Notes under the pieces: generated by a model
What the model saw: the letters and a program-made list of their open reading frames with translations, nothing else
Database searches by the model: none
What the model was told of the DNA's origin: nothing
Shown here: one piece after another, positions 2,070 through 53,402 of the stretch
Numbering within the stretch: position 1 is the first letter of the stretch
How the letters are laid out: every line of letters begins with the position of its first letter
From: a bacterium
Lineage (GTDB): Bacteria; Patescibacteriota; Saccharimonadia; Saccharimonadales; Saccharimonadaceae
Direction of reading: 5' to 3'
Length of the DNA: 64,000 bases
NCBI GenBank assembly: GCA_963619155.1
Contig: CAVEVN010000013.1
Coordinates: 5,263 to 69,262, forward strand
Translations under genes and position numbers: made by a program

Positions 2070-2192
2070 ATGCTCCTTTATATTATTATTGGTTCTTTTT
2101 GTAGCTCCACGCTCAAAAAAGACGTATTCCTGACCCCATTCTACCACATCTACAAAGAAAAATAAACCCCAAAATCGGGGTCCTATTTCCCA

Positions 2193-2221
2193 ATTATATC
2201 ACAGATTGCACAAAAAGTCAA
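2193..2221 (-). promoter_or_regulatory. Sigma70-type promoter for fusA
   Basis: The minus strand reads TTGACT, a 17-nt spacer ending ctgtga, then TATAAT. It lies about 125 nt upstream of the fusA ATG. Confidence 0.6.
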
Positions 2222-2338
2222 GTTCCAGCTCTAGCTTGTCTCTTAATCTTTATATGTCTACCTAATGGGTGTCCCGGGTGGCGTAGTAAATATTTCGGAC
2301 ACAGCACATTAAAACAAAGATCGCTCTAAAACTCGTCT

Positions 2339-2364
2339 CCCCAGCTATGCGCTGGGGATTTTTA
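2339..2364. terminator. GC hairpin, possible terminator downstream of ORF 2362..2775
   Basis: Stem CCCCAGC/GCTGGGG with a 5-nt loop, followed by ATTTTTA on the plus strand. On the minus strand the T-run is displaced, so the orientation is ambiguous. Confidence 0.4.
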
Positions 2365-2775
2365 ATCCCCTAGAGCTTCAGCATATCCAGGATATCCACC
2401 CTCGGGTCTGTGTTTAGGGTGTTGGAAATATAGAGTATGATAATATTTATCACCTACGGGTTCATTGGTGTCCACGCTGTAATCTTGACACCAAAACTTA
2501 GCCGCAACCTCATGATCCTGAGAAAGCCCATAACTTTCAAGCCCACAAACTCGATCATCTCGTCCATACATCATCTCGATATGGCGGCCCAACAGATGCT
2601 CTTCTAGCGCGAGATATTCCTTTTCTTCTTCATTTTTCATATTTATGCCACAATATACCAAAGCCCCGAACGTGACAATAAACAGACATCCAAAGATTAT
2701 AGTTAGTGTTTTGTATCTATTGGTCTTATATTGACTATTTTTCTGTTTACTAGCGTTTTTATTGATTTTTTTCAT
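2362..2775 (-). CDS. Hypothetical small membrane-anchored protein
   Basis: 137-aa ORF with a Lys-rich N-terminus followed by one hydrophobic helix (LTIIFGCLFIVTFGALVYCGI). The segment is AT-rich and I recognise no family. Confidence 0.5.
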   Translation of the reverse strand: MKKINKNASKQKNSQYKTNRYKTLTIIFGCLFIVTFGALVYCGINMKNEEEKEYLALEEHLLGRHIEMMYGRDDRVCGLESYGLSQDHEVAAKFWCQDYSVDTNEPVGDKYYHTLYFQHPKHRPEGGYPGYAEALGD

Positions 2776-2935
2776 TTTAAAACCTTTCGTTAACTATATT
2801 AAAGCATAAAGGTTTATAGAAAACAATATCATCGTATTGTCTCACAATCCTTATAACATAAAAATGCAGTTCTCGTTATCAAAAACAGATCATTTTACAT
2901 TTGCGCTAATTCGTTGTTTAGTAAAACGTCAAAAA

Positions 2936-4474
2936 TTAGGCGAGTTTCTGGCGCAGAATTTCTTGCACGCTGGACGGATTGGCTTTACCTTTCGACTCTT
3001 TCATCACTTGCCCGACCAAAAACCCTAAGACCTTTTCCGACCCGGCACGAAAATCATCTTGCGCCTGCTTCGTTTCCGGCTTCGAGAGCACCGCATCCAC
3101 AATCTTCTCTAGCGCCCCGAGGTCATTTTCTTGAATTAGCCCTAGTTCACTCGCAATCTGTTTCACGCCCCGTGTTTTCATCTGCGGGTCAAAGAGCCTC
3201 AAAAACACTTCTTTCGTCGCTGTCGAACTAAGCTCTTTTTTCGCGTTCATCTCTGCTAAAGTATTTAAAGCTTCCGCGCTTGGCAAATCGTTCAAAAATT
3301 CCGCCGACTTCTCCTCCGCCAGTAAAACAGACGTAAACAGGTTAGCAATCAGAGAAATGGCTGGACGCGCTTCATCGAGGACCGTAGGCTTGGCCGAGCG
3401 GCCTTGAGCGTGTCCGAGATGGAGTGCGTCAGCCATTTCTGCCTCTCGCGACCCGTCTCCCGAAAGGACTTGTTCTGGTTGCGAAGAGAGGCTAGCCATT
3501 TCTGCTAGCTTTTCCATCAATTCCGGATAATCTAGCAAAATCTCCAGAATATCCCCCGAAATCACGTCTCTAAACTCCCGTCGATAATCCGTCGGCATCA
3601 ACGGGAACTCAGTGAGCTGTTCGTCAATAAACTCATGAGACAAATTCAACGGCGGCAAATCCGGCTCCGGCATATACCGATAATCTTTGGCTTCTTCTTT
3701 CGAGCGTTGCCCCGTGGTTTTACCGGTGGCATCGCTCCACCCGCGCGTCTCCTGCACCACTTTTTCACCCGCCTCGAGCAACTTGGTTTGTCGCGCGATT
3801 TCATATTCTACCGCCCGTTCTACCGATCGGAACGAGTTCAAATTTTTGACTTCCGCTCGCGTGCCGAGCTCTTTCGAACCTTCCGGCGCCAGCGACACAT
3901 TTACATCAAACCGCATGTTTCCGTTATATAAATCTCCATAAGTCACTTTAGCGTAGCGCATTAGTCGCCACAATTCCTTACAATAATCGTGCGCGTCCTT
4001 TGCTGAATGAATATCCGGCATCGAAACAATTTCAATGAGCGGCGTGTCCACCCGATTCAAATCCACCAAAGAATAAGTCTCAAAATGGGTCAATTTCCCC
4101 GCGTCGCCCTCAAGGTGCGCGTGTTCAATCCGGATTTTAGTGCCCGATGGCAACTCGACAAACCCCGCCCCAATAATCGGGTGATAAAATTGCGTAATCT
4201 GGTAACCCTTAGGCGAGTCCGGATAAAAATAATGTTTGCGGTCAAACCGCGACTCAGCATTAATCTCGCAATTCATCGCGCGCCCCGCTCGCACCGCAAA
4301 CTTTACCGCCTCGCCGTTGAGTCTCGGCAACATTCCCGGTAACGCATAATCCACCGGCGACACGCACGAATTTGGTTCTTTTCCTCTTGCGTCGTTGTCT
4401 ACCTCGGAAAATAACTTGGTTTTGGTTGATAATTGCACGTGGCATTCGATGCCGATAGTCGGTAAATATTTCAT
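2936..4474 (-). CDS. gatB: Asp/Glu-tRNA(Asn/Gln) amidotransferase subunit B
   Basis: 512 aa. The N-terminus MKYLPTIGIECHVQLSTKTKLF and the motifs NRVDTPLIEIVSMPD and RFDVNVS are typical of GatB. A C-terminal YqeY-like tail is present. Confidence 0.95.
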   Translation of the reverse strand: MKYLPTIGIECHVQLSTKTKLFSEVDNDARGKEPNSCVSPVDYALPGMLPRLNGEAVKFAVRAGRAMNCEINAESRFDRKHYFYPDSPKGYQITQFYHPIIGAGFVELPSGTKIRIEHAHLEGDAGKLTHFETYSLVDLNRVDTPLIEIVSMPDIHSAKDAHDYCKELWRLMRYAKVTYGDLYNGNMRFDVNVSLAPEGSKELGTRAEVKNLNSFRSVERAVEYEIARQTKLLEAGEKVVQETRGWSDATGKTTGQRSKEEAKDYRYMPEPDLPPLNLSHEFIDEQLTEFPLMPTDYRREFRDVISGDILEILLDYPELMEKLAEMASLSSQPEQVLSGDGSREAEMADALHLGHAQGRSAKPTVLDEARPAISLIANLFTSVLLAEEKSAEFLNDLPSAEALNTLAEMNAKKELSSTATKEVFLRLFDPQMKTRGVKQIASELGLIQENDLGALEKIVDAVLSKPETKQAQDDFRAGSEKVLGFLVGQVMKESKGKANPSSVQEILRQKLA

Positions 4475-4893
4475 TAAATTGCTCCTAAATCTTTTAATGC
4501 TTGCTTGTAAATCTCCAAGGCATTCAGCGCCTGCTTGTAGCCAACTTCAAACCCCGCCTCGTGCGCAATCGCATTGCGCAACTTGTGCGCGCGCCACACT
4601 CCGTTCAAATTGCTAAATTTATCACCCCGTCGTTTCAACCGGTCGCCCATGGTTTTGCCCGGCACGCCCATTTCGATTAGAGCTTTGTCGAGCAATTTAT
4701 CTGCCTCAATAATCGTCGTCGTCCAAGTCGCCGGCGATTCTTTGCGCATTTTATTCTCGATCGCCAAAAAATCCGTCTGGTATTTTTCGCGGTTAAAAAC
4801 ATAGCCGCGCTTGCCAGTGAGCAGAATCGCCACAAAGACAAACACCGCAATAATCAGCACGGCGAAAATAAAAATTACTACTCCGCCATCCAT
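4474..4893 (-). CDS. Membrane-anchored hypothetical protein with an R-x4-H (HEPN-like) motif
   Basis: 139 aa with an N-terminal TM helix (VVIFIFAVLIIAVFVFVAILL) and a helical C-terminal part containing WRAHKLRNAIAHE. GAGG lies upstream of the ATG. Its stop overlaps the gatB start by 1 nt (TAATG). Confidence 0.65.
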   Translation of the reverse strand: MDGGVVIFIFAVLIIAVFVFVAILLTGKRGYVFNREKYQTDFLAIENKMRKESPATWTTTIIEADKLLDKALIEMGVPGKTMGDRLKRRGDKFSNLNGVWRAHKLRNAIAHEAGFEVGYKQALNALEIYKQALKDLGAI

Positions 4894-14398: not shown

Positions 14399-14516
14399 AA
14401 GCAGCGGTTTTTGCACGATGAATGTAAACGGCATCGTGTGGAAACGGTAGTAGGCATCATCGTGCCCGCTGCTTGAAAACGACGTAAGACATCGTGGACG
14501 CACGGTGTCGTTTTTT
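14399..14516 (+). promoter_or_regulatory. Structured repeat region with terminator-like hairpin upstream of the R-M operon
   Basis: An outer 9-bp stem (AAGCAGCGG 14399-14407 / CCGCTGCTT 14466-14474) encloses CACGATG and CATCGTG copies. It is followed by the hairpin GACATCGTG-GACG-CACGGTGTC and then GTTTTTT (14488-14516). Confidence 0.55.
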
Positions 14517-14549
14517 ATTAATAAAGACATCGTGGTCAGAAAGAATACG

Positions 14550-15398
14550 ATGTCTGAACCAAATTATATCAATCAAGTTTTTTTCAAAGACTCTCGCAGG
14601 ATGCGAGAGCTGCCGGATTGTTCCGTGCAGCTTATTATTACAAGTCCTCCGTATTTCAATATAAAGGATTATTCTAAAGATGGCTATCAGCAAAATAGTA
14701 TTGGAACCAAACTAAAAGGCCAAATCGGTGACATTCCGGAATACGATGATTACATAAAGGAAATGCTGAAGGTCTGGAAAGAGTGTGAGCGTGTTCTTAA
14801 GCCTAATGGCAAATTAATAATTAATACTCCGTTAATGCCAATGTTAAAGCGCGATTTAAACACGCATTACAATAGGCATATATTTAATATCGATAGCGAT
14901 ATACAGCATTCTATTCGAACAAAAACTAACCTTTTTTTACTAGATGTCTATATATGGAATAGGACCAACCCTAGTAAAAAATTAATGTTCGGCAGTTATC
15001 CATATCCTAGAAATTTTTATGCACAAAACACGACCGAATTTATAACCGTTTACGTTAAAGACGGCGTCCCTGAACGTCCTTCAAAAGAAAACCGAGAATC
15101 CAGTAAACTATCACAGAAAGAATGGATACAATTAACAAAGCAAATTTGGAACATACCCATACCGGGCAAGGGCGATCTCGCTTTTGGCAGGCATTCGGCA
15201 ATAATGCCAGAAGAAATAGCGCGTCGAGCTGTTAAATTATATAGCGTTGTTGGGGATTTAGTTTTGGATCCATTCACTGGAAGTGGAACCACATTAAGAG
15301 CTGCAAAAGCACTTAATAGAAACTATGTCGGCTATGAAATTTCAACATCTTATAAGGGAATAATTGAACAAAAACTTAGGGGTCAAAATGAAAATTAA
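14550..15398 (+). CDS. DNA amino-methyltransferase 1 (beta class, SPPY motif; N4-C or N6-A)
   Basis: I prefer the ATG at 14550 (MSEPNYINQVFFKDS...) over the GTG at 14505 listed in the track. Motif IV (LIITSPPYF) precedes motif I (LDPFTGSGTT), which is the beta-class order. Confidence 0.88.
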   Translation: MSEPNYINQVFFKDSRRMRELPDCSVQLIITSPPYFNIKDYSKDGYQQNSIGTKLKGQIGDIPEYDDYIKEMLKVWKECERVLKPNGKLIINTPLMPMLKRDLNTHYNRHIFNIDSDIQHSIRTKTNLFLLDVYIWNRTNPSKKLMFGSYPYPRNFYAQNTTEFITVYVKDGVPERPSKENRESSKLSQKEWIQLTKQIWNIPIPGKGDLAFGRHSAIMPEEIARRAVKLYSVVGDLVLDPFTGSGTTLRAAKALNRNYVGYEISTSYKGIIEQKLRGQNEN

Positions 15399-16161
15399 TT
15401 CTATATATAATGAGGATGTTTTTTCTTTTTTAGAAAATGTCGACATAGATAGCATTGACCTGGCGGTAATTGACCCTCCTTACAATATGAATAAGGCTGA
15501 CTGGGATACATTTAACTCCCAACGGGACTTTTTAGATTTTACATACAGGTGGATTGATAAACTTGTACCTCTGCTTAAAAATACCGGCAGTTTATATATC
15601 TTTAATACTCCGTTTAATTCTGCATACATATTACAATATCTTGTTAATAAGGGGCTAATATTCCAAAACTGGATCACTTGGGATAAGCGCGATGGTTTGA
15701 ATGCGTCAAAAGTCCGTTATACGCATGGACAAGAAACAATTTTATTTTTTACTAAATCCACAAAACATACTTTTAATTCTGACGCTATTCGGATTCCCTA
15801 TGAATCAACCAAACGCATAGAATCTGCTAAAGCTAAAGGATTACTAAAAAATGGTAAAAGATGGTTCCCGAACCCAAATGGTAGATTATGTGGAGAAGTC
15901 TGGCATATAGCTAGCGAGCGACATAAAAGAAAAATAGGGGGACGAGTTCAAAAATTAGGACACGTCACACCTAAGCCAAAGGAAATGATAGAGAGAATTA
16001 TCCTTGCTAGTTCTAATGAAGGAGATCTTGTTTTGGACTGTTTCGTTGGGAGTGGCACGACAGCATATTGTGCAAAGAAGTTGAAGCGCAATTATATCTG
16101 CGCTGATAGTAATGAGGAATATGTAAAAATGGCAAGAGATGCCGTAGAGGAGATACAATGA
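15388..16161 (+). CDS. DNA amino-methyltransferase 2 (beta class, DPPY motif; probably N6-adenine)
   Basis: I prefer the ATG at 15388 (MKINSIYNEDVFSFL), which has GGGG upstream and overlaps the M1 stop by 11 nt. Motif IV is VIDPPYN and motif I is LDCFVGSGTT. Confidence 0.88.
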   Translation: MKINSIYNEDVFSFLENVDIDSIDLAVIDPPYNMNKADWDTFNSQRDFLDFTYRWIDKLVPLLKNTGSLYIFNTPFNSAYILQYLVNKGLIFQNWITWDKRDGLNASKVRYTHGQETILFFTKSTKHTFNSDAIRIPYESTKRIESAKAKGLLKNGKRWFPNPNGRLCGEVWHIASERHKRKIGGRVQKLGHVTPKPKEMIERIILASSNEGDLVLDCFVGSGTTAYCAKKLKRNYICADSNEEYVKMARDAVEEIQ

Positions 16162-17402
16162 ATATAATTATCAGTAATATTCAACCAGGTAATAAAGCGC
16201 TCGAGTATATCGAGCGTCGTATTCGAGACGATAACTATCGTGGAGCCGAATCGTCTGAGCATAATAGATATGATATGCAAGAAATATTTACTATTTTACA
16301 GATTTTAAATAAATATGCGCCAAATAAACAGTTGATGCGGATTCGTGATACCGATTTGTCGAAAAGACCCCAAAATACATCAGACGAGATGCATTACGCG
16401 CATTTTTGCGGTGAAGTGAAAGAAAAAGTTGGCAAAGGAACCCAAGACTCTATAAGAAAGAATATATTTGTGGACATGCACAGGATGGGACTGATTGAAC
16501 GCTATGATGATTCTCGCGATAAGACAAGCCCGTATGGAGGTGGCGCAGTGAAATATGTTTCGTTGTCTAACGATGGGGTCGAATTTGTCTCGTCAAACTT
16601 ATTAAATAGAGCCTTCTTATTTACGAAAGCGTTAGATAAGCTATTGGGCGGATATATTGAAATCTCATTAGAAATTTTAAAAGACCCAGACTATGATATA
16701 GAAAAAATTACCAAATGGGATTTTATGTTCTTTGTTTCTGCAATAGACGTGACATATAGTTTTAGATTATCTACAGCTCAATGCGCTGAATTAATCAAAG
16801 AATTTCATAGACTATCACCTATTCAGCAGCGTGCAGTCGTCGAAAGTCTTAAAAAAGCTCTGAAACCCAAAAACTTCTTCGGCGATAAGACAGCAAAAAG
16901 AGATTGGCACAATTGGCAGAATAAAATCGATCAAGTATTTCATTTATTCAAACAAACTCCATATTTTGATGTGTCCGGAAAAGAAAACGAAATATTAACA
17001 CTATCAACTCAAAAAATTATAACGAAAGATGGGACTAAAGTTGATATAAAGAAAAGATCCATCGGTGAAAAATACGCCTACTTCAGCAACCATCATGTGC
17101 AAAAAACCGATGGCTATGAGTTACATCATGTTGTGCCTCTCTCTTGGTCAGAAAGCCCTGAACAATTCAAATTATTTGATAGATGGCAAAATATGGTTTA
17201 TATAGATGCTTATAGCCATGCAAAAATTACGCAAAATCGTAACCGTAATATTTATATGTCTTTAACATCGAATAATGACTTAATATTATCCGACAAACAA
17301 AATAACCAAGTTTATCTTACAAAAGACAGATGCGTCCTTTATGATGAAAAGAACAAAGTCGTTATGTTAGATTATAATAAACAATTGCTTACAACGGTTT
17401 GA
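16158..17402 (+). CDS. Putative restriction endonuclease with C-terminal HNH motif
   Basis: 414 aa. It has an ATGA start/stop overlap with MTase 2. The C-terminus GYELHHVVPLSWSESPEQFKLFDRWQNMVYIDAYSHAKI fits the H-N-H pattern. I recognise nothing in the N-terminal 300 aa. Confidence 0.7.
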   Translation: MNIIISNIQPGNKALEYIERRIRDDNYRGAESSEHNRYDMQEIFTILQILNKYAPNKQLMRIRDTDLSKRPQNTSDEMHYAHFCGEVKEKVGKGTQDSIRKNIFVDMHRMGLIERYDDSRDKTSPYGGGAVKYVSLSNDGVEFVSSNLLNRAFLFTKALDKLLGGYIEISLEILKDPDYDIEKITKWDFMFFVSAIDVTYSFRLSTAQCAELIKEFHRLSPIQQRAVVESLKKALKPKNFFGDKTAKRDWHNWQNKIDQVFHLFKQTPYFDVSGKENEILTLSTQKIITKDGTKVDIKKRSIGEKYAYFSNHHVQKTDGYELHHVVPLSWSESPEQFKLFDRWQNMVYIDAYSHAKITQNRNRNIYMSLTSNNDLILSDKQNNQVYLTKDRCVLYDEKNKVVMLDYNKQLLTTV

Positions 17403-40723: not shown

Positions 40724-40852
40724 GTCTACATTAAATATCGAAACGTATCATTTGGATAGGTTTGAGCTTTTAAAGCGGCAACTGTTCAAAAGATACGAGA
40801 GCTTAAACTTTCGATATTTGGTGTAGACAACCTAGAACGGTTGTCGTTTTTT
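40724..40852 (+). promoter_or_regulatory. Structured leader ending in an intrinsic terminator, upstream of the sugar-modification genes
   Basis: The 20-nt arms GTCTACATTAAATATCGAAA (40724-40743) and TTTCGATATTTGGTGTAGAC (40809-40828) pair at 18 of 20 positions. An inner CGTATC/GATACG pair is also present. The terminator GACAACC-tagaac-GGTTGTC plus G and TTTTTT (40826-40852) overlaps the 3' arm by 3 nt. Confidence 0.55.
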
Positions 40853-40867
40853 ATCGAAAGGAAAACT

Positions 40868-41857
40868 ATGCACGATAAAATTTTGAATATCATAGTTATC
40901 GGTCTTGGGCACCAAAGCCTTGGGGATCATCTCCCCGCTATTCGAGCGAGCAAGAAATATAACCTCGTCGGAGTTATCGACATAGATAAAGAGCATGCGG
41001 AAAAAATTGCCAAAGAGTATAATACTGTTTTCGCGCAAACGTATTCGGAATTAAAGGCTAAAATCGATATGAAAATTGACGTCGCGCTAATAGCCGTTCC
41101 GCATAGCGAATATTTAAAAATAATTGAAGAAATAGCCACTGATAAAATCGATATCATCAAAGAAAAACCGTTTGCAGTTTCATTAAAAGAGGCTTCGGAA
41201 CTTACAAATATTGTGGAGCAAAATGATATTTCCCTGTTTGTGACTTTGCAACGACGATACAATCCAATTTTTAAATCTTTCGAACAATTAGTAAAACGGA
41301 TTGGAAAAATCTACGCAATTGAGGCGCGTTATACCATGAATATAGCCGATCTTGCCAGTGGATGGCGCGCCGTGAAAGACGTGGCTTACGGCGGAGCGTT
41401 AGCAGATATGGGGTATCATTTTATAGATTTAATAGTTTGGTATTTTGGGCTTCCGGATTCAATAACTTGCAAAGTTTCTACCGGTAACCGTGCAGACCAA
41501 CAATATAATGTAGAGGATACCGCCTTCGTTGATTTTTCATATAATGATATGGCGGAAGACGATGAAAGAGTTCTGGGCAATCTTGTTGTTTCTAGAGTTT
41601 ACCCCGGAAAAGATGAATATCTCGTAGCATATGGTTCTGATGGTAGCGTATCAGTCAAGCGTGGCGAGTTGATAAGGCTAGACGTTGCCGGACAGGAGGT
41701 CGAGCATTTATTGAGATTGGGTGGATGGCCATCTGCTATTATTGATCAGCTTGAGGATTTTCATGAAAAAATTATTAGTAAAAACTATAAAGGAAAAATT
41801 ATAGATGATTACATGGAGCAAGTTTCGTTTTTTGGAAGCTTCATATATTTCGGCTGA
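40868..41857 (+). CDS. Gfo/Idh/MocA family NAD(P)-dependent oxidoreductase
   Basis: I prefer the start at ATG 40868, which has AAAGGAAAA upstream. The track start at 40841 lies inside the terminator. A Rossmann N-terminus (IIVIGLGHQSLGDHLPAI) and EKPFAVS are present. Confidence 0.8.
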   Translation: MHDKILNIIVIGLGHQSLGDHLPAIRASKKYNLVGVIDIDKEHAEKIAKEYNTVFAQTYSELKAKIDMKIDVALIAVPHSEYLKIIEEIATDKIDIIKEKPFAVSLKEASELTNIVEQNDISLFVTLQRRYNPIFKSFEQLVKRIGKIYAIEARYTMNIADLASGWRAVKDVAYGGALADMGYHFIDLIVWYFGLPDSITCKVSTGNRADQQYNVEDTAFVDFSYNDMAEDDERVLGNLVVSRVYPGKDEYLVAYGSDGSVSVKRGELIRLDVAGQEVEHLLRLGGWPSAIIDQLEDFHEKIISKNYKGKIIDDYMEQVSFFGSFIYFG

Positions 41858-41916
41858 GACACATAAAGCAGAAAATCCTATAGAATATTTTAACCAATTG
41901 AAGAAAGGATAGCGCA

Positions 41917-42993
41917 ATGGAAAAACTTGCAATTTTCGGGGGAGACAAAATAGCGGATGACAGCGAAATGAGGTTTAACTGGCCAAGGATTACAAGCGAC
42001 ACAGAAAAAGCCGTCGTAAAGCAACTTCATACAACAATTTCGATTTACGATAACTCTGGTATTTTCGGCGAATTCGAGAAAAAATTTGCAGATTACCATA
42101 ATAGAAAATATTCGTTACTTTCCAATTCTGGCACATCTGCAATATTTTCGATGTTCGAGGCCATTGATTTAAGGACGGGAGATGAAGTTTTGTGCCCAGT
42201 TTACACTTTTCACGCTACAGTAAGTCCTATGATGTATTTCGGGGCGAGACCGATTTTTTGCGATAGTGACGATGAAGGGAATATTTCGTTCGAGAGTATC
42301 AAAAACAAATATACTTCCAACACCAAAGCAGTTATTGTGACACATATGTGGGGGACGCCAATAAGAGATATCCAAAAAATTGCTGATTTTTGCAAAGAAA
42401 AACATATTTATCTCCTCGAAGACTGTTCTCATGCTCACGGCGCGACGATATATGGCAAGAAAGTTGGAACTTTTGGCGACATTGCGGCTTGGAGCTTACA
42501 GGGTCAAAAGACCGTCACTGGCGGAGAAGGCGGAATAATCTTAACCGACAACAAAGAGATGTTTGAACGCGCGCTTTTGCAAGGCCACTATAATAAACGA
42601 CCAAAAAATGAAATCGACAAAGCAAATGGGCTATATGAGTATTACCTTACTGGCATGGGATTAAAACTACGCGCACATCCATTAGCAATCGCCATAGCGA
42701 ACGAACAATTTGACCATCTAAATGATTTTCTAAAAATAAGGAACAATTATGCTACAAAAATTACCGAAGCGCTGGAGAAGTATCCATTTTTAAAGCTTCC
42801 GACAGTGACGGATGATGTGGCAAGATCTTGGTACGCATACGGTTTCCAGTATATTAAAGAAAAAGCATATGGCGTTACGAGAGAAAAATTTGTAGATGCT
42901 TTATTAAAATTCCAGTTTGGTCTTTTATTGATGAAGCTGAGATTGTCGAAAGATATATTGCTGGATTTAAGAAAGTTTGCGACTATATTTTAG
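41917..42993 (+). CDS. DegT/DnrJ/EryC1/StrS-type PLP sugar aminotransferase, 3' end apparently rearranged
   Basis: 358 aa. The motifs NSGTSAI, VIVTHMWG, EDCSHAHGA and LQGQKTVTGGEGG are present. The last roughly 30 residues are low-complexity, while an alternative frame encodes a DegT-like C-terminus. Confidence 0.75.
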   Translation: MEKLAIFGGDKIADDSEMRFNWPRITSDTEKAVVKQLHTTISIYDNSGIFGEFEKKFADYHNRKYSLLSNSGTSAIFSMFEAIDLRTGDEVLCPVYTFHATVSPMMYFGARPIFCDSDDEGNISFESIKNKYTSNTKAVIVTHMWGTPIRDIQKIADFCKEKHIYLLEDCSHAHGATIYGKKVGTFGDIAAWSLQGQKTVTGGEGGIILTDNKEMFERALLQGHYNKRPKNEIDKANGLYEYYLTGMGLKLRAHPLAIAIANEQFDHLNDFLKIRNNYATKITEALEKYPFLKLPTVTDDVARSWYAYGFQYIKEKAYGVTREKFVDALLKFQFGLLLMKLRLSKDILLDLRKFATIF

Positions 42994-46364: not shown

Positions 46365-47368
46365 TACGCCCCTTTCCCAAAATCAACCGCGAGTTCCACC
46401 AGCCGGTTCGAATACCCCCATTCGTTATCGTACCACGCCACAATCTTGATTAAGTTCCCTCCAACCACGTCAATGAGCGGCAAATCTACAATACAAGAAT
46501 GCGGATCGCCGATAAAGTCCGACGATACTAATTCCTCGTCCGTCACGCCAATAATTCCTTGATAATATGGCTCTTTGGCGGCTTTTTTGAATAAGTTTTG
46601 TAACTCTTCTTTGGTGACGTCGCGTTTAACAATTGCCGTAATGTCCGACAACGAAACCACTGGCGTCGGAACGCGCACCGACAGTCCATTAAACTTACCC
46701 TTGAGGCTCGGAATCGTCAGCGCCGCAGCTTTGGAAGCTCCAGTTGAAGTCGGCACGATGTTTTCTGCCGCCGAACGCGCCTCGCGCAAGTCTTTCGCTG
46801 GCGCATCGAGGATTTTTTGCGAGCCGGTATAAGAATGTACCGTCGTCATCATTGCCTTTTCAATCCCAATTTCGTCTTCCAAGACTTTCATCACTGGCGC
46901 GATACAGTTCGTCGTACAAGACGCGTTCGAAATTATCTCATCGTTATCTTCCACTACGTCTTCGTTGACCCCTAGCACCACAGTTTTTGCGCCTTCGCCC
47001 TTAGCCGGCGCCGAAATTACTACTTTTTTCGCCCCCGCCTTGATGTGCGCCCGTGCATCTTTTGGATTAGTAAAAAATCCGGTCGATTCAATCACGACAT
47101 CCACACCAAGCTCGCCCCACGGCAACTTCGCCGGGTCTTTCTCCGCAAAAACGGGAATTTCGCGCGTGTTCACTACGATCGCATTTTCCTTTGCGGCTAC
47201 TTTTTTATCATAAGTCCCGTATGAGGAATCGTGTTTTAAGAGGTGTGCCAGAGTTTTTGCATCCGTAATATCGTTAATCGCCACCACTTGCGTGTCGTGT
47301 CTCTCCAACAAAATTTTCAACGCATTCCGTCCGATGCGTCCGAAGCCGTTAATCGCTACTTTTACCAT
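46364..47368 (-). CDS. gap: Glyceraldehyde-3-phosphate dehydrogenase
   Basis: 334 aa. The motifs VAINGFGRIGR, SNASCTTNC and WYDNEWGYS are present. Upstream are an SD (GGAGG) and a TGCTATAAT promoter. Confidence 0.96.
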   Translation of the reverse strand: MVKVAINGFGRIGRNALKILLERHDTQVVAINDITDAKTLAHLLKHDSSYGTYDKKVAAKENAIVVNTREIPVFAEKDPAKLPWGELGVDVVIESTGFFTNPKDARAHIKAGAKKVVISAPAKGEGAKTVVLGVNEDVVEDNDEIISNASCTTNCIAPVMKVLEDEIGIEKAMMTTVHSYTGSQKILDAPAKDLREARSAAENIVPTSTGASKAAALTIPSLKGKFNGLSVRVPTPVVSLSDITAIVKRDVTKEELQNLFKKAAKEPYYQGIIGVTDEELVSSDFIGDPHSCIVDLPLIDVVGGNLIKIVAWYDNEWGYSNRLVELAVDFGKGA

Positions 47369-47463
47369 TTTTACCTCCTAAATATACTTAAGCTCATTAT
47401 AGCACACTTCGCCTCAAAAGCACAAGCAACAAAAATACACCTCTTACTGAACGGAAAACATAG

Positions 47464-47576
47464 GCAACAAAAATCACCTCTTCGGGACAGTACGGAGGCT
47501 ACGGCCGAGTAATAGGGAGCGAGCCCCGTAACGACGGGCGCGAGCGACCCGTGTCCCGAAGGGGTGTTTTTGTTGC
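47464..47576 (-). terminator. Long imperfect inverted repeat with a 64-nt GC-rich core, probably the rpsL-rpsG terminator
   Basis: The arms GCAACAAAAATCACCTCTTCGGGAC (47464-47488) and GTCCCGAAGGGGTGTTTTTGTTGC (47553-47576) have one bulge and one G-T pair. On the minus strand the 3' arm ends in ATTTTTGTTGCC. The element starts 8 nt after the rpsG stop. Confidence 0.55.
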
Positions 47577-47584
47577 TGGGCGGG

Positions 47585-48061
47585 TTAGCGAGCAAAATGC
47601 GCAAACGCGCGGTTCGCTTCGGCCATGCGGTGGCAATCTTCTTTCTTCTTGAAGGCTGCGCCTTGCTCGTTGTAAGCGTCAACAATCTCAAGTTCAAGCC
47701 GTTTCGCATATGGCATCCCACTGCGCGCTCGGGCAGATTGAACCAACCACGAAAATGCAAAATGCAGTTGCCGATGTCCCGAAATCGGGAACGGGATTTG
47801 ATAGTTCGCACCACCAACCCGGCGACTTTTCACCTCGAAATCCGGCGAAATATTCGCGATTGCTTTTTCTAGAACTTCGACTGGATTCTCCGAATCCAAT
47901 TTTTTCGCTGCACCCTCAATCGCAGCATAAACCGCACGCTCCGCAACTTGTTTCTTTCCATCTAACATTGACTTATTAATTAATCTTTGCACCAAAATCG
48001 ACTGATATTTGCGATCTGGGCTCACTTTTCGCTCTAGCGACTTAGTAGTTTTCCGTGGCAT
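47585..48061 (-). CDS. rpsG: Ribosomal protein S7
   Basis: 158 aa. The motifs PDRKYQS, VEVKSRRVGGANYQIP and MAEANRAFAHF are present. Confidence 0.96.
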   Translation of the reverse strand: MPRKTTKSLERKVSPDRKYQSILVQRLINKSMLDGKKQVAERAVYAAIEGAAKKLDSENPVEVLEKAIANISPDFEVKSRRVGGANYQIPFPISGHRQLHFAFSWLVQSARARSGMPYAKRLELEIVDAYNEQGAAFKKKEDCHRMAEANRAFAHFAR

Positions 48062-48703: not shown

Positions 48704-48712
48704 TGATATAAT
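48704..48712 (+). promoter_or_regulatory. Extended -10 promoter (TGaTATAAT) for the structured RNA and four-gene operon
   Basis: TGATATAAT lies at 48704-48712. The predicted transcription start (about 48719-48720) coincides with the first nucleotide of the outer stem of the downstream structure. Confidence 0.55.
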
Positions 48713-48719
48713 TAAAGAG

Positions 48720-48860
48720 CTTAGACTTTTATAATTTGACAAACCGATTCTGAAAAGAATCGCTGGTTTCAAGAAAATCTTGTGGCTATGTGCTCGAGTT
48801 TGGTTCTTGAAACCAGATTTGTCAAAAGGTCTAAGCAACTTGGTACGTAGCCACATTTTT
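48720..48860 (+). ncRNA. Candidate structured RNA (three-way junction plus possible pseudoknot), 5' leader of the operon or an independent small RNA
   Basis: P1a is CTTAGAC (48720-26)/GTCTAAG (48829-35). P1b is TTTGACAAA (48735-43)/TTTGTCAAA (48818-26). P2 is CGATTC-tgaaaa-GAATCG (48745-62). P3 is a perfect 13-bp stem, CTGGTTTCAAGAA (48763-75)/TTCTTGAAACCAG (48804-16). TGTGGCTA in the P3 loop (48781-88) is complementary to TAGCCACA (48848-55), which is followed by TTTTT. Confidence 0.55.
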
Positions 48861-48931
48861 GTGTCAATAAGAAACTATTTAGGCAAAAGTCTCTTAAACG
48901 TATCAAAAATAATAAAAGTTTAGGAGAAACT

Positions 48932-50194
48932 ATGTCGAGACGCAGGTCAAAAAAGGATAATAATAAGTGGCTTACTGTTATTATTGTGGTTTTGTGTGTT
49001 TGTGCACTTGGTTTTTTTATTTACGCCGGCTCGTCTTCGGGCGAAAATTCAAGTTGCGGTACTCGTGAAGAAGACACGGAACGCAGTGGCTATTGCCTCA
49101 CGACGAGCAAAGATTATGACGAATTAGTCATCGTAACTGGCAATACTCAAAACACTCCAGCTCCAGACTTAGACTTTACCCAGGGCGAATTATACGATAT
49201 TTTAGGCGGCGTATTTTATAATTCCGAGAGAGGAGCTGCTCCTAATGTCTCGATAGTTTCAGTCGCCGGCAACAATCATATTATAGAGTATACTGCTAAC
49301 CATAAAGTTGCTCAAAACATTATCGCATCGAATAACGAACTCAAAAAACTCGGCAAAGAGTTAAATAAGGCTATTAAAACTTTACCATCGGAATCCGGAG
49401 CAGATTATTTGGGTGCGATTCTGGAAGCAAACAACATTATTTCAAACACGTCTAAAAATCCCATTATATTGGTGGTCGGTTCGGGATATAGCGATTCTGG
49501 CGCATTGAATTTTGCATCCGATGAAATATTCAATTTATATTGGCAAAATGCCGACAATATCACTCAGCTTCTCTCGCAAAATCGGCAAACCAAAGAAGGC
49601 GCACTCAATCAAACGGCGGTCTATTGGTATAATTTGGGAGATACGGTGGCTCCGCAGGCCAGTTTGAATGTCTACAAGGAAGATACTAAAGAAATTTACG
49701 AACTCGCACTTGAATACCTTGGAGCTGGAAAAATTAGTCTCAATAATTATACCGGTATTTCTTCAGAAGCGACATCTGTCGCTTCTGAATATAGTGTGCA
49801 ACAGATCTATATTGATGAATTGAAAGTTGGGGATACCTTCAATGTCAACGAAGATATTGGGCGTTTTTATCCGGACGCAGCCACGTTAATAAACGCAAGC
49901 GAAGTCAAAGAAAAATTAGTATCTTTTGCCAAACATTTTAACCCGAACGGAAATACAAAACTGAAACTAACTGGATACATCGCATATTGTATAGACGAGG
50001 GGCAATTGGGTTTGTCCCGCGCCAATGCAATCAAGAATATACTGATGGAATTAGGCATACCAGAAAATAAGATCGAAACCCATGGCGAGCGAGGCTCTCC
50101 GCCAGAATCTAATAACGAAGCTTATACTTGCCGGAGCTCTTTACCCGAGACCGAGCGTAGAACAGTAAAAATAGAAGTAATAAAGGATGAATAA
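48932..50194 (+). CDS. Membrane-anchored protein with a vWA-like alpha/beta region and a C-terminal OmpA-like peptidoglycan-binding domain
   Basis: 420 aa with an SD (AGGAG) and an N-terminal TM helix (WLTVIIVVLCVCALGFFIYAG). The central region (ELVIVTGNTQNTPAPD...ILVVGSGYSDSG) is vWA-like with a degenerate MIDAS motif; this call is tentative. The C-terminus FYPDAATL...KLKLTGYIA...LSRANAIKNILMELGIPENKIETHGERGSPP...RRTVKIEV fits OmpA_C-like. Confidence 0.75.
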   Translation: MSRRRSKKDNNKWLTVIIVVLCVCALGFFIYAGSSSGENSSCGTREEDTERSGYCLTTSKDYDELVIVTGNTQNTPAPDLDFTQGELYDILGGVFYNSERGAAPNVSIVSVAGNNHIIEYTANHKVAQNIIASNNELKKLGKELNKAIKTLPSESGADYLGAILEANNIISNTSKNPIILVVGSGYSDSGALNFASDEIFNLYWQNADNITQLLSQNRQTKEGALNQTAVYWYNLGDTVAPQASLNVYKEDTKEIYELALEYLGAGKISLNNYTGISSEATSVASEYSVQQIYIDELKVGDTFNVNEDIGRFYPDAATLINASEVKEKLVSFAKHFNPNGNTKLKLTGYIAYCIDEGQLGLSRANAIKNILMELGIPENKIETHGERGSPPESNNEAYTCRSSLPETERRTVKIEVIKDE

Positions 50195-51045
50195 TGTCTA
50201 AAACTTTTGGTAATTTTGAATTCGGCGAGCATTTGTTTAATATTTGTTTCTCTTCTGGTCTAACATGCGTAATTTGTCTTGCAATTGGCGTTTCGCTTAA
50301 TTATATGGGTTTCTTTTCTAATGAAGCTAACCTGTGGGTGATTTTAGCCTTGTGCCTTGTTCCTGTGTGGACATTTATAACTGTATTTTTCGAATCGGAG
50401 TTTAAAATAGCCTACTACAAAACTTGGCATGATAAAATTATGGGGCTAATCGACCAATCAAAAATTCTTCAACGTTTTGCAAAACAATATAAAATTAAAA
50501 ATTGGAAAAATAAACTTGAGGAAGTCAAGACAGATGGGCGGTGGCATTTTTATGCGGACACTAACTACATGCATAGGTTAGCGGAGCAACGTGATTTAAC
50601 GATCGGTAAAATATATCGAGAATATCTCGCAGAAATGGCTCTCAAAAAAACAACGGTAATAAGCGCGCAGAAAGAATTATCGAATGCGACCATTCAACTA
50701 AAAGAAGCAGAAGACGCGGAAAAAATCGCTAAAAAATTATGCGAAGAAGCAAAATCGCCAGGCGAGATTTATAAGCAAAGACAAAGTTATCAAATAAAAA
50801 GACGTGAACTTGCCGAAGCGATGACAAAGAAAAGCGACGCAGAATATGCCTTGCAAGAACAAACAAAAGAAAGAGAAGATATAATTAACATGTACCAACA
50901 AGAGGCCGCTTTGATTGTGAAAATTTTTTATTCAAGATATTTAAAATACACTGAGTCTGCTATTAAGAAAATTAATAAAATCAACGGATTAAAATATACG
51001 ATAGTCGATATGTCAAAAGCTAATATACCGACATTAACAATATAA
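50194..51045 (+). CDS. Hypothetical protein with two TM helices and a long coiled-coil
   Basis: 283 aa. Its start overlaps the upstream stop (TAATG). Two hydrophobic helices are followed by a charged heptad-like region (ISAQKELSNATIQLKEAEDAEKIAKKLCEEAK...). Confidence 0.7.
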   Translation: MSKTFGNFEFGEHLFNICFSSGLTCVICLAIGVSLNYMGFFSNEANLWVILALCLVPVWTFITVFFESEFKIAYYKTWHDKIMGLIDQSKILQRFAKQYKIKNWKNKLEEVKTDGRWHFYADTNYMHRLAEQRDLTIGKIYREYLAEMALKKTTVISAQKELSNATIQLKEAEDAEKIAKKLCEEAKSPGEIYKQRQSYQIKRRELAEAMTKKSDAEYALQEQTKEREDIINMYQQEAALIVKIFYSRYLKYTESAIKKINKINGLKYTIVDMSKANIPTLTI

Positions 51046-51058
51046 GAAAGGAACCAAA

Positions 51059-51592
51059 ATGAAATTTTTTAATTTTTTCACAAAGGAAAAAGATGAAGAT
51101 ATCGACCATGATTGGCGCGATTTAGACGCGTTACCCAAAGAAGTTGTTTCTGAAAAAGAACTTGATGCTATGCAGGATGAGGTTGTTAAAAAATTGACAA
51201 ATTTAGAGCATGACACTATCAAACAAACCGGCGATATACCAACGGCTAAGCCTCAGGCGCTGTTCTATTGCCATAAATATATTGATGCTAAATTTAACAA
51301 AGAAAATTTCGATATCGATACATATTTTTCCAGAAAACAGAATATTTTAGACCGAAAATACGCAGAGGGGCTAGGCGATGTTAAAGCGGAATTTACCGGG
51401 TACAAAGAATTGATTGAAGAGATAAAAGAGGTCGACTGGCGCCTGAGAAAGAAGATAAACAAATTGGATCCGAGTTCAAATGTGAATTTGGATGTTGCTG
51501 GGACTTATGATGATTCCGAGGTGTTGCTTGCGCAAATTAACGAATTGCCAGCCGGCATTAATTGGGATAATTTTGAAAAGGAGAACGAATGA
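51059..51592 (+). CDS. Hypothetical acidic soluble protein
   Basis: 177 aa with an RBS (GAAAGGA) 7 nt upstream. Its stop overlaps the next start (ATGA). I recognise no family. Confidence 0.65.
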   Translation: MKFFNFFTKEKDEDIDHDWRDLDALPKEVVSEKELDAMQDEVVKKLTNLEHDTIKQTGDIPTAKPQALFYCHKYIDAKFNKENFDIDTYFSRKQNILDRKYAEGLGDVKAEFTGYKELIEEIKEVDWRLRKKINKLDPSSNVNLDVAGTYDDSEVLLAQINELPAGINWDNFEKENE

Positions 51593-52503
51593 ATATTTTT
51601 AGACGCAGACGCAAAAACGAGACTACGGACGCTCAGCAACCCGTGGTCGACTTTGGTAATTTGAAAGGTAAAAACACAAAATCTCCAGAAACAGACACAA
51701 CGGCTTCGAGTGAGATTGCGGACGTCCAGTATGAAAAAATACAACAAACTATTTTTGGGGTTCGTTTTCCTTGGGAGGCTATATTTTTCGTAACCGTAGG
51801 CGCATTGAGTGAGGTCGTCGATGCGATGTTCCTCAATGCTACACTGGAAACTCTAGGGCGTGATTTGGATCCGACCACAGCTACGATCATTTCTTATATT
51901 GTTGGTGCCGGTTGTTTCTTTTCGATGGCGTTTGTCGGTTTTCAATTTGGCAACAGACGCTATTATACGAAAGTTGGCGAATATGTCTCTTATGGTTTTT
52001 GGGCAGGCTCTGGGATTGCTCTCGTTGCAGCTAAATTATTGGCCGGTTTAGTTGGAGGGGGTCTAGATAGTGTTATTGCCGGCAGAATGAGTGCTAGCGA
52101 ACTGTTCGGCTCGGAGGAGTTTCTTTCCAATTTGATTGTCGCCGTAGTTCAGGCGGTTCTTTATGTCGGGACCGGTTTTATGACGAGAGATAGCGTTCGT
52201 ATTCTGACCGACAATGATTTAAGAGAATATTTTTTGGCAAGGCGTCGTTATAAGCAACTTTTGAAAGAACTCTCTGAGCAGCGTGGAAATATCGCCGAAG
52301 ATATTTCAAAACTAAAGTCCTATCCAAAATTCGCAGAAAGATTAGTCCTGTCAAAACGTTCAGTCAAAAAGAACGTAGCTCAATATAACGAATCTGCAAG
52401 GGCTTTAATAGAAGCAAAGATGGCGATCACGGTAGAGCCAGATTTAATGGAAGATATGTACGATAGAGCAATGGAAAAAGAGGCTCTTCGAAATAAAAAA
52501 TAA
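51589..52503 (+). CDS. Hypothetical polytopic membrane protein with a C-terminal coiled-coil tail
   Basis: 304 aa with about four hydrophobic helices between residues 60 and 200. A charged helical tail follows (RRRYKQLLKELSEQRGNIAEDISKLK...). Confidence 0.7.
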   Translation: MNIFRRRRKNETTDAQQPVVDFGNLKGKNTKSPETDTTASSEIADVQYEKIQQTIFGVRFPWEAIFFVTVGALSEVVDAMFLNATLETLGRDLDPTTATIISYIVGAGCFFSMAFVGFQFGNRRYYTKVGEYVSYGFWAGSGIALVAAKLLAGLVGGGLDSVIAGRMSASELFGSEEFLSNLIVAVVQAVLYVGTGFMTRDSVRILTDNDLREYFLARRRYKQLLKELSEQRGNIAEDISKLKSYPKFAERLVLSKRSVKKNVAQYNESARALIEAKMAITVEPDLMEDMYDRAMEKEALRNKK

Positions 52504-52518
52504 AATCATGTAAAAAAC

Positions 52519-52546
52519 AATGGCGCCCAAACAGGCGCCATTTTTT
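52519..52546. terminator. Bidirectional intrinsic terminator
   Basis: Stem AATGGCGCC/GGCGCCATT (9 bp) with loop CAAACA. It is flanked by AAAAAAC and TTTTTT, and it overlaps the stop of the convergent gene 52545..53402. Confidence 0.8.
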
Positions 52547-53402
52547 AATGTGCTTTATGCACCCATTGCTCCCATTGACCACATAAATGGTCGTATAGAT
52601 CCAAAAAGGCTGCAATATTCACATGAATCGGGTGTGGCCATTCTAGCATCAAGGTTCTCTTGTCGGATAAGTCGAGATAGACATAGTCTTCTGTTGAATT
52701 CATGAGCCGATCAAGTTGATAGCCAAGATGTTTATTAAGACTCACCGGAAAGAAGCTATAATAGCAGAATATCCACTTCAAAAACATTTCCCGATATGCA
52801 AAAAAATATTCAGTAGCCTTTGACGGGTCGTCTTTGAGCATGTTTTTAATATAGGCTTCTTTTGGCATCAGATAATTCTTGATTGACTGAAGTCGTTTAT
52901 TGCGAACTGCATCGTCGTAATACGGTAAATATTTGAGCGACATTTTATCCAGATCTGACTTATCGCCAGCGATAACAATGCCGTCTCGAACAATCGCACC
53001 GATTACGATATCTGTCGAGTCATAAACTGCAGAATGCTTCAGTTCTTCACAAGTCGGCAAGACTGGTCTTGCAATTTTACAATCAAGCACAGTGCCTTGA
53101 TGAATTATCGAAAACTCAACCCTGTTGCCGGCGCCGTCTCTTACGACATGCGGGTATTTCACCCACTCCTTAACGATGCTCCTTAAGCGATAGCGAACAA
53201 CTTCTACTATACCGTCTAGGTTGTCAGCTACTGCCCTGTTCGTCAACGCTACTATGTCTAAATCCGATGTCCCGATATTGAAACATCCAGAATAAGCAGC
53301 GGAACCAAAGAGGACCAATGTTTTTATCTCTAGTCCACCCAGTTCATGTTTGAAAAAACTTTTGCAAAATTTTATAGTTTCTTGATATTTTTGTGAATCC
53401 AC
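52545..53402 (-). CDS. Nucleotidyltransferase-domain protein (Pol-beta superfamily, ANT/KNTase-like fold)
   Basis: 285 aa. LVLFGSAAYSGCFNIGTSDLDIVAL matches the GS...D.D minimal NTase motif. The helical C-terminal half is not assigned. Confidence 0.65.
   Translation of the reverse strand: MDSQKYQETIKFCKSFFKHELGGLEIKTLVLFGSAAYSGCFNIGTSDLDIVALTNRAVADNLDGIVEVVRYRLRSIVKEWVKYPHVVRDGAGNRVEFSIIHQGTVLDCKIARPVLPTCEELKHSAVYDSTDIVIGAIVRDGIVIAGDKSDLDKMSLKYLPYYDDAVRNKRLQSIKNYLMPKEAYIKNMLKDDPSKATEYFFAYREMFLKWIFCYYSFFPVSLNKHLGYQLDRLMNSTEDYVYLDLSDKRTLMLEWPHPIHVNIAAFLDLYDHLCGQWEQWVHKAH

Follow-up and report, generated by a model that had tools for sequence, protein, structure and literature searches.

The DNA analysed here is a stretch of 64,000 nucleotides from a Saccharibacterial contig (CAVEVN010000013.1), which we call the window and always mean at its full length. 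Its positions 48932-52503 carry four tightly coupled + strand genes, W1 to W4, which, as far as sequence comparison reaches, are an undescribed system: a known kind can be assigned to the OmpA-like domain and, weakly, to the vWA-like domain of the first product, and to nothing else. The reading that we favour, tentatively and with a probability of about 0.4, is that the encoded proteins would form a wall-anchored platform for docking or presenting a surface enzyme, and that the substrates of this enzyme would be nucleic acids of extracellular or host origin. An undescribed system is also what a previous, sequence-only reading of the window had suspected, and the searches bear this out: W2, W3 and W4 have no significant match in Pfam, NCBIfam, PADLOC or PHROGs, and PDB profile searches with the N-terminal domain of W1, with W2, with W3 and with two alignments of W4 (A2 and A4) returned histone, designed-coil or ribosomal noise only (coiled-coil noise for W4, nothing relevant for the W1 domain). 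For these three proteins, for the cluster as a whole and for its leader RNA, nothing matching was found in the libraries and literature searched.

The four open reading frames (ORFs) encode a bitopic anchor protein of 420 aa (W1, 48932-50194), a protein of 283 aa with two transmembrane (TM) helices (W2, 50194-51045), an acidic soluble protein of 177 aa (W3, 51059-51592), and a polytopic protein of 304 aa (W4, 51589-52503). The junctions, TAATG between W1 and W2, a 13-nt gap containing AAGGA between W2 and W3, and ATGA between W3 and W4, are those reported in the sequence-only reading, which had placed a ribosome-binding site in the gap; the TM helix counts that it gave (one, two, none and four, with W3 acidic) are likewise reproduced by hydropathy analysis in 19-residue windows. 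W1 is preceded by the Shine-Dalgarno sequence AGGAG (48922..48926, + strand), and TAGGAG is kept in most of the aligned upstream regions. A G+C-rich hairpin resembling a bidirectional intrinsic terminator (52519..52542; stem of 9-10 bp, 6 of them G-C, and T-runs on either strand) begins 16 nt past the W4 stop codon. Read together, the extended -10 box described below, the leader, the four translationally coupled genes and the terminator make up a single transcription unit. W1, W2 and W4 are real genes under strong purifying selection, with ratios of nonsynonymous to synonymous substitution rates (dN/dS) of 0.037 for W1 and 0.081 for W2 (both against a 90%-identical relative) and of 0.051 for W4 (against an 88% relative); values in the same range, 0.015 and 0.045, are obtained for gap and for the nearby cation diffusion facilitator (CDF) transporter gene, respectively. 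The four products would form one membrane complex.

Relatives of the cluster were sought in an exhaustive hidden Markov model scan of 1.84 billion representative proteins, in which the W4 profile recovered no more than 24 clusters at E <= 1e-3, and in a genome set with a single representative for each GTDB species, which yielded 21 loci. A further homologue search with a mixed-clade W4 alignment added at least two proteins. Homologues of W1 and W4 are named only 'hypothetical protein', and the few with an organism label come from Candidatus Saccharibacteria. Of the titles of the GTDB-species loci, 19 name Saccharibacteria, Saccharimonas or Nanosyncoccus and three give no phylum; one high-GC species-representative record is labelled Actinomycetota. 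As far as organism labels show, the family is restricted to Saccharibacteria, with the exception of that one labelled locus. Actinomycetota is the phylum of known Saccharibacteria hosts, and the record may represent a mislabelled bin or a transfer. Two high-GC soil loci, L017 (contig CAVQEY010000002.1, 322 kb, flanks 63% GC) and L003 (61% GC), carry a three-gene form of the cluster together with a staphylococcal nuclease (SNase) gene; one of these two is the record labelled Actinomycetota. No relative of the cluster was found in 2.9 million viral contigs, and a phage origin is rejected, given that these contigs and PHROGs were both without a match; the JGI label 'prophage DNA circulation protein' is attached to a 150-aa fragment and looks spurious.

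Each of the 22 loci that extend far enough contains both W1 and W4, as do L027 and L028, and W4 is additionally present in L026. The order W1-(W2)-W3-W4 is constant in at least 22 loci, despite differing flanking genes. The conserved core of the system is W1, W3 and W4, because W2 has no counterpart in the other clade of the family, and W3 has a remote homologue there. Indeed, W2 is present in 13 loci, all of them in the window's clade, and is a clade-specific addition; in a few other lineages, its place is taken by a coil protein of 190-250 aa that is unrelated to it and has no predicted TM helix, and others have none. W3 is recognisable in 12 loci of the window's clade, and the other clade encodes at the same position a soluble protein of 140-170 aa, which is the remote W3 homologue (hhalign probability 90.5%, E 1.4e-6). 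Thus, the idea that the four genes are inherited as a block holds for W1 and W4, found in every adequate locus, and extends to W3 through its remote homologue, but fails for W2.

Most relatives have a fifth gene. An SNase-family gene lies directly 3' of W4 in 18 of the 22 loci, as well as in L027 and L028; put differently, 20 of 25 related loci have it, and a truncated copy is found in one more. It begins between 62 nt before and 30 nt after the end of the W4 stop codon (-62 to +30 nt), and seven diverse products match the Pfam SNase family with E values from 3.6e-19 to 3.7e-26. All fifth-gene products begin with a short N-terminal stretch, followed by a single TM helix and a low-complexity linker that leads to the domain, and by topology rules and by comparison with known SNase enzymes, the SNase domain should face outside. 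Examples are found at 6885-7694 in L027, 9540-10343 in L006, 8525-9196 in L016 and 9094-10458 in L028, and there are 16 further loci. In L001 (10657-11463), G5-DUF3761 stands in place of the outside SNase domain; this protein nevertheless retains, before its TM helix, the motif YVYAPWK found in the SNase protein of L016, and that of L023 (8429-9295) has YVYRPW. The fifth gene of L009 consists only of a Cys-containing C-terminal module, and in L018, L019 and L028, approximately 300 extra residues precede the SNase domain, with an HExxH motif among them in L018. Hence, the fifth position looks like that of a swappable membrane-anchored surface enzyme, with a constant anchor and a variable outside domain. 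The usual family unit has this fifth, translationally coupled SNase gene, which is absent in the window. It is because of this gene that the functional guess moves from envelope sensing or defence, as initially proposed, towards surface nucleic-acid processing.

W1 provides the putative connection to the cell wall. It has a single TM helix at approximately residues 13-33 by hydropathy, an Arg/Lys patch on its N-terminal, cytoplasmic side, a vWA-like domain that begins about 25 residues after the helix, and then the putative wall-binding domain. The alignment-based AlphaFold2 (AF2) model has a predicted local distance difference test score (pLDDT) of 90.2 and exceeds 90 over residues 300-420. 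The C-terminal region (about 296-420), previously described as OmpA-like, indeed adopts the OmpA/MotB/Pal fold in this model (Foldseek against PDB, E 1.6e-6, probability 1.0): OmpA, MotB, Pal, YfiB and DotK-type chains are the top structural matches, and the TM-scores to OmpA, MotB and Pal are 0.57-0.70 (target-normalised). By sequence, W1 of the window matches Pfam OmpA (PF00691) with an E value of 5e-5 and 24.0 bits, under the cut-off of 27.2 bits, and its orthologue in L028 exceeds that cut-off with 44.9 bits; several W1 homologues carry a precomputed PF00691 match, and a relative has sequence matches to OmpA, Rv0899 and MotY. R363, which is the Arg in the motif LSxxRA, is invariant in the W1 alignment. 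The TM segment has no conserved column in 38 sequences and hence no conserved Asp, which agrees with what had been noted for the window's protein.

Residues 60-275 of W1, approximately, follow the vWA order of strands and helices in the AF2 model. When the model was compared with BFVD using Foldseek, viral VWFA proteins were matched over 220-240 columns with probabilities up to 0.98, E values of 1e-3 to 1e-2 and a root-mean-square deviation of 8-9 A. The motif of the metal ion-dependent adhesion site (MIDAS), DxSxS...T...D, is not found in W1: GNTQNT, GAD and GSGYSD stand at the equivalent positions in all 38 aligned members; the sequence-only reading had described the motif as degenerate. No Pfam vWA family matched W1 at E <= 1, and of 17 members, one matched TssR_VWA (E 0.023); the sole PADLOC match of the four proteins at E <= 1 was BrxB (E 0.0019, on W1). 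The invariant residues of W1 are G70, T72, N74, S110, Y159, G183-S184-G185, D188, G190, Q242 and R363, and those within the vWA-like domain are all located at or just past the C-terminal ends of beta-strands. Such strand ends are the usual ligand face, and according to the model, the domain would offer a conserved pocket that is not a MIDAS metal site. We also note two pairs of Cys residues conserved in the window's clade, 42/55 (SSCG...GYC, just outside the membrane) and 352/399 (AYC...YTC, in the OmpA-like domain); these suggest disulfides, which would fit an extracytoplasmic location. Two loci (L002 7742-9026 and L025 5764-7073) have their W1 homologue divided between a pair of ORFs, which could be due to a frameshift, a pseudogene or an assembly error.

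W4 is the polytopic member of the core. Its AF2 model (pLDDT 76.9) comprises a disordered N-terminus of about 55 aa, four long helices (61-207), a 73-residue helix (209-281) and a final helix, in line with the four TM helices seen by hydropathy and a basic C-terminal helical tail of approximately 100 aa. Invariant across the family are D78 in TM1, W138 and G142 in TM3, and Y192 and G196 in TM4, and position 149 in TM3 is nearly invariantly Arg or Lys. By the positive-inside rule, D78 and K/R149 are both placed near the outer ends of their helices, where they probably form an intramembrane salt bridge. The best match of the W4 fold in PDB (Foldseek) is unrelated, with an E value of 0.34. Judging from the model, W4 is a novel membrane-protein family without a structural relative in PDB.

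Of the two remaining proteins, W2 has TM helices at about 14-36 and 45-65 by hydropathy, followed by a basic, helix-prone region with an isoelectric point (pI) of 9.5 that is predicted to be cytoplasmic; for W2, the sequence-only reading had proposed a coiled coil of about 150 aa. Paralogy of W2 and W4 through their C-terminal helices was considered and rejected (hhalign probability 1.5%). W3, without a TM helix and predicted to be cytoplasmic as well, is acidic, with a pI of 4.7 versus approximately 9.5 for the cytoplasmic tails of both W2 and W4.

These features can be combined into a tentative mechanism. W4 would be the membrane core, with its TM1 Asp probably paired with the Arg/Lys located at TM3's outer end, and acidic W3 would be bound by the basic cytoplasmic helices of W4 and W2. 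W1 would cross the membrane once, fasten the assembly to the cell wall through its OmpA-fold domain and present, in its vWA-like domain, the conserved non-MIDAS pocket. In most relatives, the fifth gene would add a single-pass protein with an outside SNase domain, or with another outside domain in single cases, yielding a surface enzyme that may serve nucleotide salvage or DNA uptake. Expression would probably be controlled through the leader RNA. Nucleic-acid processing is favoured because of three precedents. Mycoplasmas obtain nucleotide precursors through membrane-bound nucleases with a thermonuclease domain, whose genes can be arranged in operons together with those of uptake systems (PMC12115388). 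Bacteria in the candidate phyla radiation group (CPR) are described as incapable of nucleotide synthesis (10.64898/2026.07.13.738296), and Saccharibacteria are naturally competent (PMC10187176).

Several observations weigh against the platform as just described. A docking role explains neither the invariant intramembrane Asp nor the cytoplasmic helices of about 100 residues, which hint at signalling or energy coupling. The Asp of the motif GYTD/GHTD is replaced by Ala in W1 (GYIA in the window, GYTA in L028); together with the Arg of LSxxRA, the Asp of G-H/Y-T-D makes up what we take to be the pair that holds diaminopimelate in peptidoglycan-binding OmpA/Pal domains. Accordingly, of the cell-wall tether that had been proposed, the OmpA fold and the invariant Arg stand and the canonical Asp does not; on the basis of the former two, wall binding by W1 is plausible, though non-canonical. 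The outside domains of W1 are acidic (pI 4.5-5.3), and DNA binding by charge is therefore unlikely. The outward orientation of the SNase domain depends on the positive-inside rule and on known SNase enzymes. Finally, tblastn found no SNase homologue in the window's 64 kb, and L026, the 88% relative, is also without an SNase gene at this locus. Given that relatives at 73-74% retain the gene, the nuclease gene was lost from the operon in the window's lineage. The four genes nevertheless persist there without an adjacent nuclease, with W1-W4 under purifying selection; therefore, in this lineage, the platform would either depend on a partner whose gene lies elsewhere or serve a purpose that requires no nuclease.

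The persistence of the cluster in a lineage without SNase is accommodated if the complex is an envelope-integrity or division scaffold, loosely comparable to Tol-Pal, which couples membrane and wall, organises a cytoplasmic coiled-coil layer (at a septum or pole, for instance) and has the nuclease next to it as a secondary matter. The OmpA-fold anchor, the long helical cytoplasmic regions in three of the four proteins, the strong purifying selection, and the spread over Saccharibacteria with GC contents from 36% to 59% all speak for such a role. We nonetheless regard it as unlikely, since the cluster is unlinked to division or wall-synthesis genes in any locus, and a scaffold would leave unexplained both the conserved vWA-like pocket and the tight coupling of a gene for an outside enzyme in approximately 80% of the loci.

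The sequence-only reading had pointed to MotAB/ZorAB-type stators, with the caveat that this was only an analogy, and an analogy it remains. If developed into an explanation, it would have W4 oligomers conduct H+ or Na+ past the TM1 Asp in an ion-coupled transducer that resembles a stator and is non-homologous to MotAB, ExbBD and ZorAB; wall attachment would be the part of W1, a signal or force would be relayed to partners by the cytoplasmic helices, and the whole could possibly sense breaches of the envelope in a Zorya-like manner, with the nuclease as effector. The parts list does parallel that of Zorya (PMC11946911), namely, a wall-binding bitopic protein, a polytopic protein with a helical tail and, in most relatives, a nuclease in the operon, and W4 does combine an invariant intramembrane Asp with a nearly invariant Arg/Lys. 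Yet W4 resembles none of MotA, ExbB, TolQ, ZorA and GldL in structure or sequence, no match of the four proteins at E <= 1 was obtained with Pfam MotA_ExbB or with the Zor models of PADLOC, and the W1 TM helix, lacking any conserved residue, has no axle Asp. The W4 tail has about 100 aa, as against a ZorA tail some 70 nm long, and the nuclease has the N-terminal membrane anchor and linker typical of an outside enzyme, whereas Zorya effectors are soluble and cytoplasmic. Nor is there support from a defence-island context, as no neighbour family recurs across clades, and the GC content of the cluster tracks that of each genome, as for long-resident genes. We therefore consider this explanation decidedly unlikely. 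A bolder variant, which we would call a long shot, is that W1, W3 and W4 constitute a new wall-anchored ion-coupled machine unrelated to the 5:2 motors, in which D78 gates, powers or positions a surface nuclease at the epibiont-host interface, and that the leader is a new riboswitch.

Host attachment is more doubtful still. vWA domains are known for adhesion, which they commonly mediate, and the W1 vWA-like domain could, on this account, be an adhesin to the host surface that is anchored through the epibiont wall. Between the window and L005, W1 is 90% identical at the protein level versus 98-100% for gap, rpsG and rpsL, and Saccharibacteria are epibionts (PMC10633639). However, the MIDAS used by vWA adhesins is absent in all members, the vWA-like domain is expected to lie beneath or inside the epibiont's own wall rather than beyond it, and the W1 dN/dS of 0.037 gives no sign of diversifying selection. 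That four unrelated genes merely adjoin by chance and form no complex is scarcely credible: the gene order is kept across differing flanks, start and stop codons overlap, and leader and terminator are held in common.

Upstream of the cluster, the structured RNA that the sequence-only reading had placed before the operon is found to travel with it. An extended -10 promoter-like box, TGATATAAT (48704..48712, + strand), is read from the sequence, and the box TATGATATAAT is nearly invariant across six aligned upstream regions; no -35 element was found upstream of W1. A transcription start near 48719, about 7 nt past the -10 box, is predicted, and the transcript would open with a structured 5' leader of approximately 145 nt (48719..48862, + strand), identified by folding and conservation. 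The 216-nt stretch 48720-48935, folded as + strand RNA, has a minimum free energy of -66.4 kcal/mol (z = -6.5). Three helices, P1, P1b and P3, are nested in the structure, which further has an inner hairpin (48781-48800) and the 3' tail UAGCCACAUUUUU, complementary to UGUGGCUA. Within the inner hairpin, UGUGGCUA is the exact complement of UAGCCACA, located before a 3' U5 run (near 48856-48860), and this complementarity suggests either a pseudoknot or an alternative terminator-like pairing.

The leader occurs eight times: in the window (48704-48862) and in L005 (5782-5935), L027 (3114-3269), L006 (5773-5928), L011 (916-1071), L009 (144-293), L029 (947-1103) and L030 (4828-4943). Two of the eight copies come from a pattern scan of metagenomes, one of them with a W1 start downstream. 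Upstream of W1 in L005, L027, L006, L011 and L009, the leader DNA is 82-97% identical, with W1 proteins that are approximately 49-90% identical; in this one subclade, the RNA is thus better conserved than the proteins that follow it. In L006, L009 and L011, the upstream genes are different ones, and rpsL was not found there. In the consensus helices, 97% of cells are paired, versus at most 50% when the partners are slid, and because the leader sequences are so alike, only one covarying pair could be detected (C-G to U-G to U-A). Rfam contains no family for the leader at gathering or relaxed thresholds, and a covariance model found it in the window's subclade only. We consider the leader to be a candidate cis-acting element that travels with the operon, possibly a new riboswitch or attenuator.

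The block W1-W4 has a GC content of 39.2%, versus 46.5% for the rest of the window, and in 16 of 17 genomes, the flanks are less AT-rich than the cluster. The AT-rich island seen in the sequence is therefore real; however, it is not unique in the window, where 14505-17402 and 40841-42993 (35-39% GC) are equally or more AT-rich, and it bears no sign of recent transfer. Recent horizontal acquisition was rejected as an explanation, because the GC content of the cluster follows that of each genome, over a range from 36% to 59%, and other AT-rich blocks are present. The AT-rich composition is a property of the cluster genes and no mark of recent import.

The cluster had been placed between rpsL and a CDF transporter gene. 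A convergent gene for a nucleotidyltransferase-like protein of 285 aa (52545-53402, - strand) lies between W4 and the CDF gene. It has weak matches only, to NTP_transf_2 (E 0.01), NTase-conflict (E 0.016) and the MntA antitoxin (E 0.007), and shares the hairpin at 52519-52542 with the operon; L026 has the same arrangement of W4, terminator and nucleotidyltransferase gene. In L005, the closest relative, approximately 3.2 kb (1457-4656) separate gap and rpsG, versus about 0.2 kb in the window (47368-47585), which represents an insertion or deletion adjoining the operon. When all neighbouring ORFs were clustered, no neighbour family was found to recur across clades beyond the cluster itself and the SNase gene, and genes for division or wall synthesis were not linked to the cluster in any locus. 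In one environmental subclade, an orphan gene for a PilB/GspE-type ATPase (Pfam T2SSE, E 1e-84) is located on the same strand some 30-110 nt upstream of the W1 homologue (L028 3817-5511, L018 4021-5715, L019 4009-5703 and L021 3950-5644); this hints at a link of the cluster to pilus- or secretion-type ATPases, with the qualification that the four genomes are closely related. The accessible part of a transposon sequencing study of Southlakia epibionticum, a strain that may or may not carry the cluster, contains no rows for SNase, MotB, vWA or OmpA-domain proteins, apart from one unrelated mention of an OmpATb N-terminal domain, and a paper on the two type IV pili makes no mention of such proteins.

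Patescibacteria commonly have lineage-specific operons whose function is unknown. To our knowledge, it is largely obscure how Saccharibacteria take resources from their hosts, and the majority of their genes lack a functional assignment. Against this background, the cluster represents a delimited, phylum-specific candidate for epibiont surface biology. A platform with a nuclease, if true, would provide a handle on epibiont feeding or DNA uptake, and an ion-coupled machine with a surface nuclease, if that were the case, would be the long-sought route of Saccharibacteria to host nucleotides. Should the leader be a riboswitch, the identity of the ligand would reveal the signal that is sensed by the cell. 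Whatever the function, W4 defines a new membrane-protein family without a structural relative in PDB.

It is instructive to compare the cluster with the systems that it most resembles. As in Zorya and the other 5:2 motors (MotAB, ExbBD, TolQR and GldLM), a bitopic subunit with an OmpA/MotB-fold domain would be combined with a polytopic subunit that has a helical tail, there is a seemingly essential acidic residue within the membrane, and a nuclease gene belongs to the operon in most relatives; in GldL, as in W4, the acidic residue sits on the polytopic subunit. At the same time, W4 lacks any similarity to the A-type subunits in sequence or fold, the W1 TM helix has no conserved Asp, W1 contains an extra vWA-like domain, and the W4 tail spans about 100 aa rather than hundreds. 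Unlike the cytoplasmic effectors ZorC, ZorD and ZorE, the fifth protein of the relatives is a membrane-anchored SNase predicted to be outside, and the window has no fifth gene. The cluster family is, moreover, confined to one phylum and is without a defence-island context.

The C-terminal fold of W1 is shared with a range of OmpA_C-like wall anchors from secretion machines, motility machines and monoderm or mycobacterial envelopes, including MotB/MotY, TssL/TagL, DotK, Pal and ArfA (Rv0899) of M. tuberculosis, from which it differs by the Ala in place of the Asp of the peptidoglycan-binding Asp/Arg pair. The arfABC operon is similar in that an N-terminal TM helix, a middle domain and an OmpA-like domain are encoded together with small membrane proteins; however, the middle domain of W1 is vWA-like and not a BON domain or a plug, and the partners are unrelated. 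W1 resembles vWA domains in the succession of its strands and helices, in its structural hits to viral VWFA proteins and in the placement of motifs at the end of beta1, at the start of helix 3 (GxxY...A) and at the end of beta4; it departs from them in that the MIDAS is replaced in every member and no sequence-profile match was obtained in Pfam or PDB.

For the function that we favour, the closest parallel is provided by the SNase/TNASE_3 nucleases of mycoplasmas (PMC12115388). The partners differ, being here a wall anchor, a novel protein with four TM helices and coil proteins rather than subunits of an ATP-binding cassette (ABC) transporter; no ABC family matched W1-W4, and no ABC gene recurs beside the cluster. 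Here, moreover, the anchor is a TM helix and not a lipid, and the window's operon is without a nuclease gene. What the two have in common is a host-dependent bacterium with a reduced genome and a surface nuclease of the SNase fold, which is co-transcribed with membrane proteins and is proposed to supply nucleotide precursors.

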